Source: Escherichia coli | GTDB lineage: Bacteria > Pseudomonadota > Gammaproteobacteria > Enterobacterales > Enterobacteriaceae | Length of the DNA stretch: 27,104 nt | Assembly: GCF_003334385.1 (NCBI RefSeq) | Contig: NZ_QOWN01000059.1 | Strand: one strand, 5' to 3' | In this document: one piece after another, positions 18,779 through 24,315 of the stretch | Layout of the letters: the number at the start of each line of letters is the position of its first letter | Position numbering within the stretch: position 1 is the stretch's first letter | The notes under the pieces: model-generated | What the model was told of the DNA's origin: nothing | Database searches by the model: none | The model's input: only the letters and a program-made list of their open reading frames with translations | Program-made: the position numbers and the translations under genes

Positions 18779-19129
18779 TCACTTTAGCCGTTCACGGGCC
18801 GTCTTCGCCTTATGGCACGGCCAGCACAGGCTCTGCAGATTGCTGTCGGCATCTGTGCCGCCATGCGCTTTAGGGATGATGTGGTCAACGGTTTTCGCCT
18901 CACGTACCACACCAGCACGCAGACATAACTGACACAGGCCTTTGTCACGTTGCAGCACACGCACACGGATAACATCCCACTTAGAACCATAACCGCGCTG
19001 ATGACGGGACTGACCTGGCTTGTATTGCTTCCAGCCTTCGCTTTTGTGGCTTTCGCAATAGCCTGACGAGTCAGTGGTGGTATGGCGGCAGCCGCGAACG
19101 CGGCAGGCTTTTGGGGTTCGTGGGGGCAT
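18779..19129 (-). CDS. HNH endonuclease (terminase-associated, HK97 gp74-like)
   Basis: 116-aa ORF with zinc-finger cysteines and the HNH core (CQLCLRAG...VDHIIPKAHGGTDADSNLQSLCWPCHKAK), immediately upstream of the terminase genes. Confidence 0.85.
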   Translation of the reverse strand: MPPRTPKACRVRGCRHTTTDSSGYCESHKSEGWKQYKPGQSRHQRGYGSKWDVIRVRVLQRDKGLCQLCLRAGVVREAKTVDHIIPKAHGGTDADSNLQSLCWPCHKAKTARERLK

Positions 19130-19130
19130 A

Positions 19131-19165
19131 AAAACACCAGTAAAAAGCCTCGCTAATGCGAGGCT
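19131..19165 (-). terminator. Rho-independent terminator after the membrane moron
   Basis: On the minus strand: stem AGCCUCGC, loop AUUA, stem GCGAGGCU, then UUUUUACUGGUGUUUUU. Confidence 0.5.
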
Positions 19166-19207
19166 AATTCATAGTAACAATTTACTCTGACAGTACCACG
19201 ACTGTAG

Positions 19208-19897
19208 TTAAATCTTTGTTCGCTGATAATCAGCAGAATCAATTAAATTATACATACCATTCATATCATGCTCATAATGATATTCAGATTCATACGAATA
19301 CCCCAATATACTCTCATAAGTCAAAACGACCCGAAAATGTTCAGGCACATCTCCAGCATTTATTTTATTTTTAGGAAATTTAATTGCGCCATTGCTACTT
19401 CTAAAAAAATGCGAGCTATATTCCCCGATAGGAGGGTCAAAAGTTAAGCTTATATTTTTCGCTGTTTTACCATCACTAAATACCGACCAATTATACTCAT
19501 ACTGTTCACCACTTTTAACTGACCATCCCAGATTCAACATATATAGATCAGGCTTCGTTTCTTTTTCTCTTTCCAGCCTTTCTGTCATGGCTTTGATTGA
19601 TTCATTTTCTAATTGCTGTTTAGAAACGGAAACCATCTCTTTATATTGTTCGACTGAGTTTTTCAACTCAGTGGCTTGTAACTTTAACGCTTCAGTATTT
19701 TGCTGTAGTTCTTTTTGTTGCTGTAAATACCCAAGCACAAGCCAAAAAAAGGCCACTGGGGAAAATGCACCAGCAAGAAAATCTCCAAACTCATTCCACG
19801 ACGTCATCTGGTTCAAATCAAGAACATGGATCGTAATACCTAAGCCAAAGAAATAAACGACACTAACTAAAACACCGCACCCAAAAATTCTCATCAT
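19208..19897 (-). CDS. Hypothetical membrane protein with coiled coil (moron)
   Basis: Visibly AT-rich ORF with two hydrophobic helices at the N-terminus, a coiled-coil stretch (QQQKELQQNTEALKLQATELKNSVEQYKEMV...) and a Tyr/Glu-rich C-terminal domain. Start placed at the ATG preceded by GGGGAGAGA; the track ORF extends to 19921. Confidence 0.55.
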   Translation of the reverse strand: MMRIFGCGVLVSVVYFFGLGITIHVLDLNQMTSWNEFGDFLAGAFSPVAFFWLVLGYLQQQKELQQNTEALKLQATELKNSVEQYKEMVSVSKQQLENESIKAMTERLEREKETKPDLYMLNLGWSVKSGEQYEYNWSVFSDGKTAKNISLTFDPPIGEYSSHFFRSSNGAIKFPKNKINAGDVPEHFRVVLTYESILGYSYESEYHYEHDMNGMYNLIDSADYQRTKI

Positions 19898-19945
19898 TCT
19901 CTCCCCATTTGGAGAAAACATTTAACAACTGTCAAATAGTCAAGG

Positions 19946-20407
19946 TCAATGCAAACACTGCAACTTTACATACTCCTGCAAGTAGTTAACCTGCGCCGTT
20001 ATCTTGTCGATTCCACTTCGGAGACGGTAATAATTGAGTTCAGCATCTGCTGTAAGTCTTGGACTTTCTCCATCGCCCATGCCGCTGGCTCTGGTCGTTG
20101 ACTTTGCACAGGTGGCAGCGACTTGCAGGCGCTTACGCCCAGCAGAAACATCAGCACGGAGACTTTCGATAGTCGCGTTAGCATCAGCAAGCTCCTTTGT
20201 GTATCTGGCGTCAAGTTCTGCTACGTCACGTTGACGCTTCTGCATATCAGAGATGGTCGCCATAGCCGAATCTAATGCCATAGCATTCTCATCACGCTGC
20301 TTTTTGTATTCAATAGCTTTATTGTGGTAATGATTCACTGAACAGATAAAAGAACCAACGACAGAAACGAAGAAAACAGCGATAACCAGCTTATAGCTCA
20401 ACTTCAT
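19946..20407 (-). CDS. rz: Rz-type i-spanin
   Basis: 153-aa ORF with an N-terminal transmembrane helix and coiled coil, closely resembling lambda Rz (NHYHNKAIEYKKQRDENA...MQKRQRDVAELDARYTKELADA); overlaps the endolysin 3' end. Confidence 0.8.
   Translation of the reverse strand: MKLSYKLVIAVFFVSVVGSFICSVNHYHNKAIEYKKQRDENAMALDSAMATISDMQKRQRDVAELDARYTKELADANATIESLRADVSAGRKRLQVAATCAKSTTRASGMGDGESPRLTADAELNYYRLRSGIDKITAQVNYLQEYVKLQCLH
19999..20184 (-). CDS. rz1: Rz1-type o-spanin lipoprotein embedded in rz in the +1 frame
   Basis: Signal peptide with lipobox (MLTRLSKVSVLMFLLGVSAC) and a Pro-rich mature part, fully inside rz. Start chosen at the second Met; the track ORF extends to 20214. Confidence 0.7.
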   Translation of the reverse strand: MLTRLSKVSVLMFLLGVSACKSLPPVQSQRPEPAAWAMEKVQDLQQMLNSIITVSEVESTR

Positions 20408-20867
20408 TTACCACCCCACCAGCCTCTTTAAACCGGGCAATCAGGTCATCGATTTTATGTTCATACTGACCGTAACCCGCACCGGGTAACGACGCCCAGA
20501 TATTGCTGCAACGATCGATAGCCTGACGGATATCACCGCGATCAATCATCGGTAAAGCACCACGCTCTTTAATCTGCTGTAATGCCACTGAGTCCTGGCT
20601 TTTGGGAGAGAAGTCTTTCAGCCCAAGCTGCTTGCGGTAAGCATCCCACCAGCGTGAAAGAAGTTGATAACGGCCTGCAGCTGTTGATTTGAGTTTCGGG
20701 TTTAGCATGACAAGTTTACGAGGGTGATCGGAGTAATCAGTGAACAGTTCGCCACCGACAATAACATCATAACCATGATTTCTCGTTTTCTGCCGTCCGT
20801 TATCCGTTCCTTCTGACCATGCCACCATATCCAGGAAAGCTTTACGCTGGGAATTTAGTACCTGCAT
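20391..20867 (-). CDS. Endolysin, lambda R-type lytic transglycosylase
   Basis: 158-aa ORF nearly collinear with recalled lambda R (NSQRKAFLDMVAWSEGTDNGRQKTRNHGYDVIVGGELFTDYSDHPRKL...). Confidence 0.9.
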   Translation of the reverse strand: MQVLNSQRKAFLDMVAWSEGTDNGRQKTRNHGYDVIVGGELFTDYSDHPRKLVMLNPKLKSTAAGRYQLLSRWWDAYRKQLGLKDFSPKSQDSVALQQIKERGALPMIDRGDIRQAIDRCSNIWASLPGAGYGQYEHKIDDLIARFKEAGGVVNEVEL

Positions 20868-20870
20868 AAA

Positions 20871-21197
20871 TTACTCCTTAGAGCCACCAAACTTGTTACC
20901 GATTACTCTCATTGCAGCCCCACGAATAGCATCGACACCGATCAGCCCCACCCCACCACCAATGGCAACAGATAGTGATTTAGGCCATCCGACATACTCA
21001 AGAGCGGATGCAAAAGTCAGCGTCAGAGCACCACAGAGCAAAATCTCGAGCGTTTTTCGCTTCCAGCCACCACCACCGCCAAAATAGGCAATGCGCAAGC
21101 CAGCCATAACGATCGACATAATTACTGCGCCCAGCGGCGTGTCTCCACGCCACCAGCTCTGGACCAACTCCAGCCAGGTATTTGGGTTATGAGGCAT
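20871..21197 (-). CDS. Holin (putative)
   Basis: 108-aa hydrophobic protein with two to three predicted transmembrane segments, immediately upstream of the endolysin with a 4-nt gap. Confidence 0.6.
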   Translation of the reverse strand: MPHNPNTWLELVQSWWRGDTPLGAVIMSIVMAGLRIAYFGGGGGWKRKTLEILLCGALTLTFASALEYVGWPKSLSVAIGGGVGLIGVDAIRGAAMRVIGNKFGGSKE

Positions 21198-21475: not shown

Positions 21476-23254
21476 GTGAGTGAAATCAGAAAGTTAAAAG
21501 GGCTAATGAATACAAATGCTATTGAGCCGTTCATTCGCCATATACGGTTTCCGTATTTTAAAAATCTTGAAGAATATAGCACTATACATTTTCACTATCC
21601 TATTACTGCATTAGTTGGTCAAAATGGAACCAATAAAAGCTCAGTATTACGTGCATTATATGGTTCTCCAAATAATTATTCCTTAGGAAATCTTTGGTTT
21701 TCAACTGATCTAGACGAGATTAAAGATGGTGGTCGTTCTAGATTTATTTATGGATACTATGATTCCGCATCTAAAGATGTTGTTGAAGTAATAAAAACAA
21801 GGATTGTAGACAAGGAGGATCCTGATTTATGGGAAACTTCGAGACCTCTAACTAAAGATGGTATGAAAAAAATACCAACAGATATTATTTCGCCAAATCA
21901 GCAAAAATCACGCTGGAAACAGATAGACAAAATTGTCACATATATTGATTTTAGAGCTTCGATCAGTGCATTCGATAAATTCTTTTATCATTCGGACTTT
22001 GATCTTTATCCAAAGAAAAATCACCTGAGAAAAAGAAGCCATCTTCTTAAAGAGATAATAGATAAAGGCCTAACATCATACAAGCCCTTTAAAGGTAAAA
22101 AAGAAAGGTTGTATAAGAATGAATTACTTTCTCAAGAGAAGGTAGAAATCATCAGCGATATACTTGGTAGACCTTACAAAACAATTAGACTTATTGAGCA
22201 TGCCTTATTTACAAACAATAAGGCTTCAACCGTTATTTTAGAGTCTCATAGTCTCAACTACTCCGAGGCTTTTGCAGGAAGTGGGGAGTTTGCAGTAACT
22301 ATTCTCGTAAATCAAATTGTTAACGCGCCAACAGCATCATTAATTCTTTTAGATGAACCCGAAGTCTCACTTCATCCAGCAGCACAGTTTAAATTGATGT
22401 CTTTTCTAAATAAGATTTGCTTAAAAAACAAACATCAAATTGTTATTTCAACACACTCATCATCTATAGTTAGCCAACTACCTAAGGAAGCCATAAAACT
22501 TTTTAATCTTAATTCAAACTCAGGAAAAGTTAGTATAGTTGAAAACGTTAGCCCTGAGGAAGCTTTCTTTACGCTTGGAGACCGACTATCAAAAAAAACT
22601 ATCTTTGTAGAAGATAAACTGGCTAAAAAATTCGTTGAGAAGGCTTTAAAATCAGGAGGTCCTGCCCTAGCCAATACATTTGATGTTATATATTGCCCAG
22701 CTGGTGCAAGCACATTATTAGGTAATATGATTGTCTCATTATTTTTATCAAGAGTTGATAATGCGGTATTTTTATTGGATGGTGATCAGAAGACAAGCCA
22801 TGATTTCATTACATCAGCCTTAATACCAAGCAGTGAAGATAATTCTTTAAATGAAAAAATAAAAAATATTCTTGGGTGTGAAATTAAAATACCAACTGAT
22901 GGGCATGGTGGAACTCCAAATAAACAGCAGAAGATTCAACTTCAGCGTGATTTCATTGATTTTTCATATAATTATGTAGGGTATTTACCTATCATTAATC
23001 CAGAAACTTTTTTGATTGACAATCTTCCGGCTTTTTACTCCGATATGATTAAAGATTTAAACTTATCAAAACTATCACCAAAATCAATAATTGCAGAAAT
23101 ATGTAAAAGAGACATAGAAAATAACGTTATAACTTCGGATGATATTTTCGCAACACAAATCAGGATACTAACCCGAATACCTGAGAATCATGTCGCATTT
23201 TCTGAAACGAGAGAAATGCTGAAATTTTTCCTTGAACATGGTAAGATAAGATAA
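21476..23254 (+). CDS. ABC-type ATPase with C-terminal TOPRIM-like nuclease domain (OLD/PARIS/Gabija-like architecture)
   Basis: 592-aa ORF. Walker A GQNGTNKSS (residues 48-56), Walker B LILLDEPE (289-296), H-loop ISTHS (324-328), then TOPRIM-like FVED (E379) and LLDGDQ (D435, D437). Visibly AT-rich. Start may be the GTG at 21476 or the ATG at 21506. Confidence 0.7.
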   Translation: MSEIRKLKGLMNTNAIEPFIRHIRFPYFKNLEEYSTIHFHYPITALVGQNGTNKSSVLRALYGSPNNYSLGNLWFSTDLDEIKDGGRSRFIYGYYDSASKDVVEVIKTRIVDKEDPDLWETSRPLTKDGMKKIPTDIISPNQQKSRWKQIDKIVTYIDFRASISAFDKFFYHSDFDLYPKKNHLRKRSHLLKEIIDKGLTSYKPFKGKKERLYKNELLSQEKVEIISDILGRPYKTIRLIEHALFTNNKASTVILESHSLNYSEAFAGSGEFAVTILVNQIVNAPTASLILLDEPEVSLHPAAQFKLMSFLNKICLKNKHQIVISTHSSSIVSQLPKEAIKLFNLNSNSGKVSIVENVSPEEAFFTLGDRLSKKTIFVEDKLAKKFVEKALKSGGPALANTFDVIYCPAGASTLLGNMIVSLFLSRVDNAVFLLDGDQKTSHDFITSALIPSSEDNSLNEKIKNILGCEIKIPTDGHGGTPNKQQKIQLQRDFIDFSYNYVGYLPIINPETFLIDNLPAFYSDMIKDLNLSKLSPKSIIAEICKRDIENNVITSDDIFATQIRILTRIPENHVAFSETREMLKFFLEHGKIR

Positions 23255-23280
23255 ATTTTAGATTATTATAGAGACAGATC

Positions 23281-24315
23281 ATGAAGAAAAAAATCAAAGT
23301 TTTTGACTTCTTTTCAGGATGCGGGGGAACAAGCAAAGGCCTTAAAGAGGCTGGGTGCGAAATTTTCTTCGGTCTCGATTATGATTATGACTCTGGTCAA
23401 ACCTTTCAGGCAAATAATCCTGATGCTATATTTTTTAATGAGGATATACGCTCCGTTAAGTTAAATGATTTATTTCAGCTTGTAAAAAAAGCGAAGCAAG
23501 ACTCACATGTTTTGTTTTGTGGTTGTGCTCCATGTCAACCGTTCTCAAGGCAAAATAAAAATAAAAGCAAAGAAGATCCTCGAAGAGGATTATTAAACGA
23601 ATTTGGTCGTTTTATCGAGTACTATTGTCCTGATTATGTACTGATAGAAAATGTTCCAGGATTACAAAAAGTTGATATTAACGATGGACCATTGCATGAT
23701 TTTATAACTCTTCTGAAAAAGAAAGATTATAATTTAGCTTATGGTGTGATTCCCGCTTTATGGTACGGAGTGCCTCAAACCAGAGAGCGTTTTGTTCTTA
23801 TGGCCTCACTTCATTCCCCAATCCATCTACCAGAGCGCACGCATAATGGCGAAGATATCCCATTTGCGACGGTAAGAGATTGGATCGGAAATATACCACC
23901 AATTGAGGCAGGTGAATCACATCCTACATTACGAGATCATGTTAGTGCAAAACTCTCTGCTTTAAATCTTAAAAGAATTAAAGCAACGCCAGAGGGTAAA
24001 GGTCGAGAGTTTTGGCCTAAAGAGTTGTTACTTGAATGTCATAAAAACCATACAGGTCACAGCGATGTATATGGCCGATTAGCATGGGATAAACCTGCTA
24101 GTGGATTAACTACAAGATGCATTAGTTACTCTAACGGAAGATTTGGCCATCCTGAGCAACACCGGGCAATTTCTGTTCGCGAGGCTGCACTGCTACAAAC
24201 ATTTCCATTGGATTATATATTCATCGGTTCAATGCTTTCTAAAGCTAAACAAATTGGTAATGCAGTCCCACCTAAAATGGCGGAGTCTATAGGGCATGTT
24301 TTTATGAATATTTAG
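23281..24315 (+). CDS. DNA cytosine-5 methyltransferase
   Basis: 344-aa ORF with C5-methyltransferase motifs in order: FDFFSGCGG (motif I), GCAPCQPFS (catalytic Cys85), LIENVPG, QTRERF and QIGNAVPP. Starts 26 nt after the ATPase gene. Confidence 0.9.
   Translation: MKKKIKVFDFFSGCGGTSKGLKEAGCEIFFGLDYDYDSGQTFQANNPDAIFFNEDIRSVKLNDLFQLVKKAKQDSHVLFCGCAPCQPFSRQNKNKSKEDPRRGLLNEFGRFIEYYCPDYVLIENVPGLQKVDINDGPLHDFITLLKKKDYNLAYGVIPALWYGVPQTRERFVLMASLHSPIHLPERTHNGEDIPFATVRDWIGNIPPIEAGESHPTLRDHVSAKLSALNLKRIKATPEGKGREFWPKELLLECHKNHTGHSDVYGRLAWDKPASGLTTRCISYSNGRFGHPEQHRAISVREAALLQTFPLDYIFIGSMLSKAKQIGNAVPPKMAESIGHVFMNI

Follow-up and report, generated by a model that had tools for sequence, protein, structure and literature searches.

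An accessory prophage gene of Escherichia coli putatively encoding a membrane-anchored protein of the abortive-infection type

A 27,104-nucleotide (nt) stretch of Escherichia coli DNA (assembly GCF_003334385.1, contig NZ_QOWN01000059.1), referred to here as the window, carries a prophage in which the spanin genes and the HNH endonuclease gene are separated by an AT-rich cargo gene. Its product, WP_000984534.1, is annotated in RefSeq as a "hypothetical protein". What is new here, as judged from profile alignments and structure prediction, is an AbiC-like membrane module joined to an unrelated stalk and beta-sandwich, in a large unannotated family. Because the membrane part resembles AbiC, we regard the gene as a candidate defense gene rather than as part of the prophage's own lysis machinery.

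The cargo gene and its cassette

The late genes of the prophage all lie on the minus strand, in the order holin, endolysin, Rz/Rz1, cargo open reading frame (ORF), HNH endonuclease and terminases; the gene assignments draw on the ORFs of the window and on the way RefSeq annotates a nearly identical prophage of E. coli. The initial annotation, made from the letters of the window, had placed a protein of about 230 amino acids (aa) within 19131-19921, between the spanin genes and HNH, and both its size and its position hold. Read from its first ATG, the ORF spans 19208-19921 on the minus strand (237 aa); RefSeq places the start at 19897, giving 229 aa. A start at 19897 or 19894 is favored because a GGGGAG site precedes these codons and homologs align there (MKLFW...). 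The ATG at 19921 falls within the -10 of a promoter-like site. The features of the locus are as follows.

20871-21197, minus strand: holin
20391-20867, minus strand: GH24 endolysin
19946-20407, minus strand: Rz with embedded Rz1
19920-19949, minus strand: sigma70-like promoter element, with -35 TTGACC (19949-19944), an 18-nt spacer and -10 TTAAAT (19925-19920)
19906-19901, minus strand: Shine-Dalgarno sequence GGGGAG, read from the sequence, 3 nt before the ATG at 19897 and 6 nt before the ATG at 19894
19208-19897, minus strand: cargo coding sequence, 229 aa plus stop, WP_000984534.1, with an alternative start at 19894
19165-19136, minus strand: intrinsic terminator GCCUCGC-AUUA-GCGAGGC followed by a U run, with an 8-base-pair stem (6 GC pairs) and a 4-nt loop
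19130-19970, minus strand: variable cargo cassette (promoter, gene and terminator), bounded by homology breaks against five E. coli prophages
18779-19129, minus strand: HNH endonuclease, followed by the small and large terminase subunits

The cargo ORF is a genuine gene rather than a chance reading frame, with 116 database homologs and matches in 3048 representative clusters. It is AT-rich, as the initial annotation had stated: its GC is 0.36, and 0.32 at third codon positions (GC3), against a GC of 0.46-0.59 and a GC3 of 0.45-0.67 in six neighboring genes, and cargo gene GC was below that of the surroundings in all 77 viral loci analyzed. A 154-aa ORF runs antisense to the gene (19392-19856, plus strand), which is unusual for DNA of 36% GC; nothing independent supports it, and it probably arises as a side effect of the opposite coding frame.

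The standard promoter scan was silent upstream of the gene, and the sigma70-like element, whose conservation among homologs the initial annotation had not seen, came from a relaxed scan. A corresponding pattern, TTGACx-N17/18-T[TG][TA]AAT, in which the end of the -10 is 25-30 nt from the ATG, occurs at 10 of 15 other enterobacterial homolog loci, some of them near-duplicates, and the remaining loci show weaker matches; relaxed promoter-like matches arise in 6% of random 150-nt windows. The homologs bearing the element are just 43-50% identical to WP_000984534.1, and their flanks differ. At the other end of the gene, the strong intrinsic terminator that had been read from the sequence stands up to calculation, with a fold energy of -26.2 kcal/mol (z = -3.06) that none of 200 shuffled sequences equaled in stability. 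Among the first 16 listed loci, which belong to the enterobacterial clade, 9 likewise have terminator-like sites behind the gene, compared with a background of 4.3% per 150-nt window. Comparison thus supports a unit of promoter, gene and terminator, in which the promoter is putative and would allow expression in the lysogen.

So precise are the cassette joints that the TGA codon ending Rz (19948-19946) falls within the -35 hexamer of the promoter-like element, and the same overlap occurs in the upstream regions of several loci with diverged homologs (L022, L024 and L026). Three TTGAC motifs, at 19949, 19943 and 19935, are crowded into 20 nt. This arrangement suggests that recombination has repeatedly joined DNA at the conserved C-terminus of Rz (..QCL).

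By megablast, the gene occurs in 12 of 5426 complete E. coli genomes, and the flanking lysis and terminase DNA in about 3500. In five other E. coli prophages, relatives whose HNH and terminase genes are about 95% identical to those of the window, homology breaks off at 19129-19149 (HNH has its start codon at 19129) and picks up again at 19971, in the last codons of Rz, in L013 and deeper in the lysis genes in the others, such that the cassette edges match the ends of neighboring genes. In these relatives, the slot is either empty or filled otherwise.

Slot in L010: a 26-nt spacer
Slot in L009: a 145-aa hypothetical protein
Slot in L011: a DUF2441 protein
Slot in L012: iss, on the opposite strand
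Slot in L013: two small ORFs

The status of cassette 19130-19970 as a moron, or accessory prophage cargo, is therefore strongly supported by its presence/absence polymorphism between flanks about 95% identical, its deviant composition and its own terminator, in agreement with the initial annotation. The same annotation had likened the position to that of the bor-type moron of lambda, a comparison that is borne out because iss, the bor homolog, occupies the identical slot in a related prophage. The likeness extends to the location between spanin and packaging genes and to the moron anatomy. Bor and Iss, in contrast, are outer-membrane lipoproteins encoded on the opposite strand, unrelated to the cargo protein in sequence, fold and presumed function; the cargo protein has no NCBIfam or Pfam match, and its N-terminus is a transmembrane (TM) hairpin without a lipobox. 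The spanin-terminase junction is a second cargo hotspot of lambdoid coliphages, beside the Q-holin junction. A 95%-identical copy of the protein is recorded in Salmonella enterica (AFDB entry A0A721XR84), and the cassette has therefore crossed genera recently.

Protein architecture and conservation

Hydropathy peaks at residues ~3-27 and ~37-58, together with the helices of an AlphaFold2 (AF2) model built from 51 homologs (pLDDT 94), agree with the two N-terminal TM helices that had been proposed. The model consists of a helix at residues 2-25, a continuous helix at 34-114 and a beta-sandwich at 118-226, and the C-terminal domain modeled by itself takes the same beta-sandwich fold. The predicted parts of the protein map to the window as follows.

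19820-19891, minus strand: TM helix 1 (TM1, residues ~3-26), from hydropathy and AF2, poorly conserved
19724-19795, minus strand: TM helix 2 (TM2, residues 35-58), motif NEFGDFLAGAFSPVAFFWLVLGYL, the most conserved part of the family
19553-19723, minus strand: stalk helix (residues 59-115), predicted cytoplasmic, continuous with TM2
19211-19552, minus strand: C-terminal Ig-like/CARDB-like beta-sandwich (residues 116-229), Tyr-rich, highly variable among homologs

Conservation is distributed very unevenly along this architecture. Pairwise identity in the close and the diverse homolog sets, respectively, was 0.37 and 0.23 for TM1, 0.83 and 0.70 for TM2, 0.76 and 0.63 for the proximal stalk, 0.34 and 0.24 for the distal half of the stalk, and 0.27 and 0.17 for the beta domain; relatives with a similar N-terminus have C-termini that are not alignable. 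Within TM2, residues G43, P47 and W52 are invariant, and the family consensus over TM2 and the proximal stalk reads NE.GDFLAG.F.P.AF.WL.LGY.QQ..EL.QNT.AL.LQA.ELK.SV. The conserved proximal half of the stalk, QQQKELQQNTEALKLQA.ELKNSVEQ, has a heptad-like pattern, with a Leu/Val heptad (d positions L64, L71, L78 and Y85) that is restricted to this half. The coiled coil of the initial annotation can be retained in part: because the heptad covers the proximal portion and not the whole helix, a single stalk helix with plausible coiled-coil character is a better description. The proposed Tyr/Glu-rich C-terminal domain is found as described, with Tyr at 11 of its 114 residues and Tyr plus Glu accounting for 28% of the last 40.

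The charge distribution is consistent with a topology in which both termini lie inside the cell. On this prediction, the periplasmic loop has only about 8-10 residues, and the stalk and beta-sandwich, roughly three quarters of the protein, are cytoplasmic. These features bear on superinfection exclusion (Sie), in which the protein would block the entry of incoming phage DNA at the inner membrane without killing the cell, as P22 SieA, T4 Imm and HK97 gp15 do. A small prophage-encoded inner-membrane protein with its own promoter-like element would suit such a function, and the highly conserved TM2, with its invariant G, P and W and acidic residues at its periplasmic edge, could contact a conserved component of the host or of the phage injection apparatus. 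However, most of the protein is predicted to lie in the cytoplasm behind a minimal periplasmic loop, the sole homology detected is with the membrane module of proteins named for abortive infection (Abi), and it has no likeness to known Sie proteins (PADLOC was silent, although its Sie coverage was not checked). We consider Sie unlikely, and an abortive-infection mechanism is favored over exclusion in the periplasm because of the predicted topology and the large cytoplasmic domain.

A pair of TM helices ahead of a beta-rich cytoplasmic domain, in a protein of similar size, also recalls the cyclic-nucleotide-gated S-2TMbeta effectors CBASS Cap15 and Panoptes OptE, which disrupt the membrane via oligomerization (PMC12657218). 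An orphan relative of these effectors might respond to a signal produced elsewhere in the cell or serve as a phage-encoded decoy or sponge, and two AFDB50 Foldseek matches are indeed named "SMODS-associating 2TM beta-strand rich effector domain" (E ~1e-9, 23-24% identity). Yet the Pfam model S_2TMBeta matched 0 of 133 family members and PADLOC 0 of 11, and neither a CD-NTase nor an mCpol cyclase was present in the window or in any annotated context inspected. The cargo protein furthermore has a stalk of about 55 residues ahead of an Ig-like sandwich, whereas S-2TMbeta proteins have a nucleotide-binding barrel, which in VnOptE begins at about residue 73 (PMC12657218). The C-terminal domain matched generic Ig-like sandwiches, and Cap15 and OptE were missing from the top PDB fold lists. 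Membership in the S-2TMbeta group is not supported, given the lack of a sequence match, the lack of a linked cyclase and the intervening stalk, and kinship with these effectors is highly improbable. Kir/KirBac inward-rectifier channels show an architectural resemblance only.

Family distribution and genomic contexts

A phmmer search of 1.84 billion representative proteins returned 3048 clusters at 50% identity, of which 1501 had E <= 1e-10, and nearly all of the best 150 matches were 190-310 aa long. Members occur in Gamma- and Alphaproteobacteria, and relatives are encoded on no fewer than 137 IMG/VR contigs; sequenced phage genomes gave 3 weak matches only. Annotation resources are largely silent on it. 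Across 133 diverse members there was no convincing match to a Pfam family, PHROGs contributed phrog_9267 (unknown function) on the N-terminal half besides a weak spanin match discussed below, and the family profile found nothing below E = 0.08 among PDB sequences. An Rfam scan of the whole window gave no RNA family, and a literature search found the accession WP_000984534.1 in the main text of no article. Many database proteins of 90-135 aa consist of a TM hairpin and a stalk without the beta domain (P0343, P0285, P0278, P0325 and P0301); one 107-aa form of this kind occurs on 93 contigs, and one source marks it complete. Such proteins may be stand-alone modules, truncations or products of split genes.

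In Enterobacter, Klebsiella and Pantoea prophages, homologs of 45-50% identity lie between the lysis and packaging genes, and these prophages differ in their holin, endolysin and terminase types. In Mu-like prophages of Acinetobacter, a homolog lies between the genes for the large terminase and a Dam methylase but points the other way, which also favors a transcription unit of its own, and on higher-GC viral contigs the homolog adjoins DNA methylases and a PAPS-reductase-like gene. When the neighbors of 77 loci were clustered, the associations were lineage-specific only (Rz and HNH in enterics; TerL, Dam and portal in Acinetobacter; methylases and PAPS reductase at higher GC), and the gene is a single-gene unit because no neighbor is conserved across lineages.

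These contexts weigh on the possibility that the gene serves the phage itself late in its cycle, either as an antiholin-like regulator of lysis timing or as a shield of the lysing cell or progeny against secondary adsorption. Its product is a membrane protein, it lies on the late strand 24-53 nt after Rz/Rz1 in several enterobacterial prophages, and PHROGs gave a weak match to an Rz-like spanin over the coiled-coil region (E = 0.09). That match covers a low-complexity coiled coil only, however, and the gene is missing from nearly all E. coli prophages with the same lysis and terminase genes, occurs with three different holin/endolysin types, lies far from the lysis genes and on the opposite strand in the Mu-like Acinetobacter prophages, and is present at non-phage chromosomal sites. 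The homologs are accordingly tied to no lysis system, and a conserved lysis accessory protein, which would have undone the defense proposal of the initial annotation, was rejected for want of consistent linkage with the lysis cassette across related and unrelated phages. We hold a phage-serving late function in general to be very unlikely.

Distant members also occur outside phages among the annotated contexts inspected. One lies at a non-phage site beside an MmeI-type restriction-modification (RM) gene and a resolvase. Behind another (L094, 7001-9436), at a distance of 22 nt, comes a 579-aa gene that matches the PADLOC candidate system PDC-S49 (E = 4.5e-22), with reverse transcriptase, DUF4238 and SocA-Panacea genes within 7 kb; in this lineage, the homolog and the PDC-S49-like gene may form a two-gene arrangement. 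In Ruegeria and Sulfitobacter, the homolog begins right at the codon that terminates parE (topoisomerase IV subunit B). The chromosomal site (L007, 8001-8723; L096, 7001-7711; L097, 1134-1844) is syntenic, and its downstream genes vary. In Sulfitobacter, a Fic-domain gene lies directly upstream of parE.

Such conserved chromosomal sites in Rhodobacterales could be taken to favor a lysogenic-conversion role unrelated to phages, for example in envelope stress, serum or colicin resistance, or signaling, by comparison with Bor and Iss. The classic moron anatomy of the cassette and the presence of iss in the same slot of a related prophage are consistent with this idea. On the other hand, the protein has no lipobox or signal peptide and its bulk is predicted to be cytoplasmic, the family extends across very different hosts and is enriched in phages and prophages (the 137 IMG/VR contigs), and the homology and machine-learning evidence points to defense. 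Lysogenic conversion of this kind is, in our estimation, quite unlikely.

The AbiC link and a candidate defense role

A weak tblastn match was found on a Vibrio plasmid, in a protein annotated as a "putative phage abortive infection protein". As a control, this Vibrio protein was confirmed to carry the putAbiC domain (PF16872) at its C-terminus (residues 169-262, 6e-14); its N-terminus reads W-GTFGDFIGGILNPLIALLAFYWL...Q..EL. Profile comparison gave a stronger signal: hhalign aligned the 133-sequence family profile with a 50-sequence putAbiC-family profile, every sequence of which is PF16872-positive, over 63 columns with a probability of 96.3% (E = 1.6e-9), and the aligned region runs from TM1 through the loop and TM2 into the juxtamembrane segment. 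With the Vibrio protein alone as partner, family profiles reached probabilities of 89-94%. PF16872 itself was absent from the query and from the 133 family members (hmmscan, E <= 0.1). Because the N-terminal regions align and PF16872 is absent, the membrane module is common to this family and putAbiC proteins, and the C-terminal domain is not. A profile of the N-terminal module, searched against a set of 5.8 billion proteins, retrieved mainly proteins of 90-150 aa that lack Pfam annotation, and it fell short of AbiC.

The first report of AbiC dates from 1992. Like the lactococcal proteins AbiC and AbiP and proteins with the putAbiC domain, the cargo protein is putatively a single-gene, membrane-anchored protein carried on mobile elements, with two TM helices as in AbiC. 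The N-terminal module that it shares with putAbiC proteins can be written as TM1, loop, W..[FL]GD[FW]..G...P, TM2 and Q..EL; putAbiC proteins continue with an alpha-helical putAbiC domain, whereas the cargo protein has the stalk and beta-sandwich instead. The AbiC and AbiP models of PADLOC gave no match for the cargo protein. According to a 2026 review (PMC13064643), AbiC has two TM helices and is grouped with AbiP, and its mechanism is unknown except for reduced capsid-protein production.

The protein cluster has also been singled out by machine learning. In the DefensePredictor study (DeWeirdt, Mahoney and Laub, Science 2026, PMC13092281), Table S10 includes the cluster WP_000984534.1, with WP_126677051.1 (229 aa) as its representative, at a mean log-odds of 7.65 for a cut-off of 4 and with the label "predicted novel defense gene"; the table further lists an HHblits match of the cluster to AbiC over 19% of the query, at a probability of 97.6. 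A defensive role would be no surprise to specialists because that study already predicts it for the cluster. The initial annotation had named the protein a candidate Abi or Sie factor, a proposal now joined by the AbiC-module homology, the DefensePredictor listing and the defense-related context, all of it computational support. That context includes the RM, reverse-transcriptase, Panacea and PDC-S49 genes beside distant members, and the OLD-like nuclease cassette in the same prophage.

In position and type, the closest precedent is PdpSau of Staphylococcus aureus prophages. This AbiP-like protein is anchored in the membrane, its gene invariably comes straight after the lysis module, and upon infection it brings about an abortive response in which the membrane depolarizes (PMC10127798). 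By its description, PdpSau likewise is a prophage gene product related to AbiC and AbiP, with a membrane anchor and a cytoplasmic C-terminal domain, encoded after the lysis module. It differs in having one TM helix, an OB-fold-like nucleic-acid-binding domain and a Gram-positive host.

The reading that we prefer is a prophage moron encoding a single-polypeptide, inner-membrane-anchored defense protein of the abortive-infection type, and we judge its chances of being right and of being wrong to be about even. Under this reading, the protein would be produced in lysogenic cells under its own sigma70 promoter and also through late read-through transcription, and it would insert into the membrane with its N-terminus in, a short periplasmic loop and its C-terminus in. 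TM2 and the proximal stalk would form a membrane-acting, oligomerizing part, while the fast-diverging cytoplasmic beta-sandwich would recognize a component of the infecting phage. Recognition might shift the oligomeric state of the TM module, whereupon the membrane would be compromised or late phage development blocked in some other way, and the superinfecting phage would fail. The analysis demonstrates a real gene with this domain architecture, its cargo status, promoter-like and terminator signals, the kinship of the membrane module with putAbiC-family proteins and the lack of a tie to lysis genes; lysogen expression, the topology, the division of labor between sensor and effector, and any defense phenotype are what we infer.

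Several points weigh against this abortive-infection reading. A defense role of any family member is putative; just 45% of the tested DefensePredictor predictions were validated, and AbiC-like entries appear only in the prediction tables of that study and in none of its tested or validated tables (PMC13092281). PADLOC (query and 11 members), Pfam and NCBIfam are all without a match, and the similarity to AbiC is limited to the membrane module, which could be a mere anchor or dimerization unit. The -10 hexamer of the promoter-like element is weak (four of six positions), and the element escaped the standard scan. In enterobacterial phages, the gene runs in the same direction as the late operon, 24-53 nt behind Rz, so it should also be made late in the phage's cycle, and late expression also fits phage-serving roles. 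The Rhodobacterales copies directly after parE have no obvious defense neighbors. Finally, no partner or antitoxin accounts for the silencing of a membrane-active protein.

Should the gene prove defensive, it would pair a near-invariant membrane module with an exchangeable recognition domain in one compact gene, a convenient arrangement for dissecting phage sensing and the action of AbiC-type membrane Abi proteins. A more far-reaching idea, which we offer tentatively and consider doubtful, is that TM2 and the proximal stalk are a widespread, self-sufficient membrane-permeabilizing effector common to AbiC-type proteins and to the more than 3000 clusters of this family, in which it would be gated directly by a hypervariable cytoplasmic Ig-like domain that binds a phage protein. 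If true, the cassette would supply many unrelated prophages with a one-polypeptide immune receptor combining sensor and pore; it would give a first mechanistic handle on AbiC-like defense and reveal a large defense family missing from Pfam, PADLOC and NCBIfam.

The window contains one other AT-rich cassette, at 21476-24315 on the plus strand, between the antiterminator gene Q and the holin gene. Its first gene specifies an OLD-like ATPase-Toprim nuclease of 592 aa, and the gene for a Dcm-type cytosine methyltransferase comes next. Matches of the nuclease are to PADLOC HEC-04 (E = 1e-34) and to the ATPase-Toprim_I-B and PtuA/GajA/Old ATPase models, and that of the methyltransferase is to MTase_II (7e-86). 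The Q-holin slot of related prophages holds a TIR-domain protein or another ATP-binding protein.

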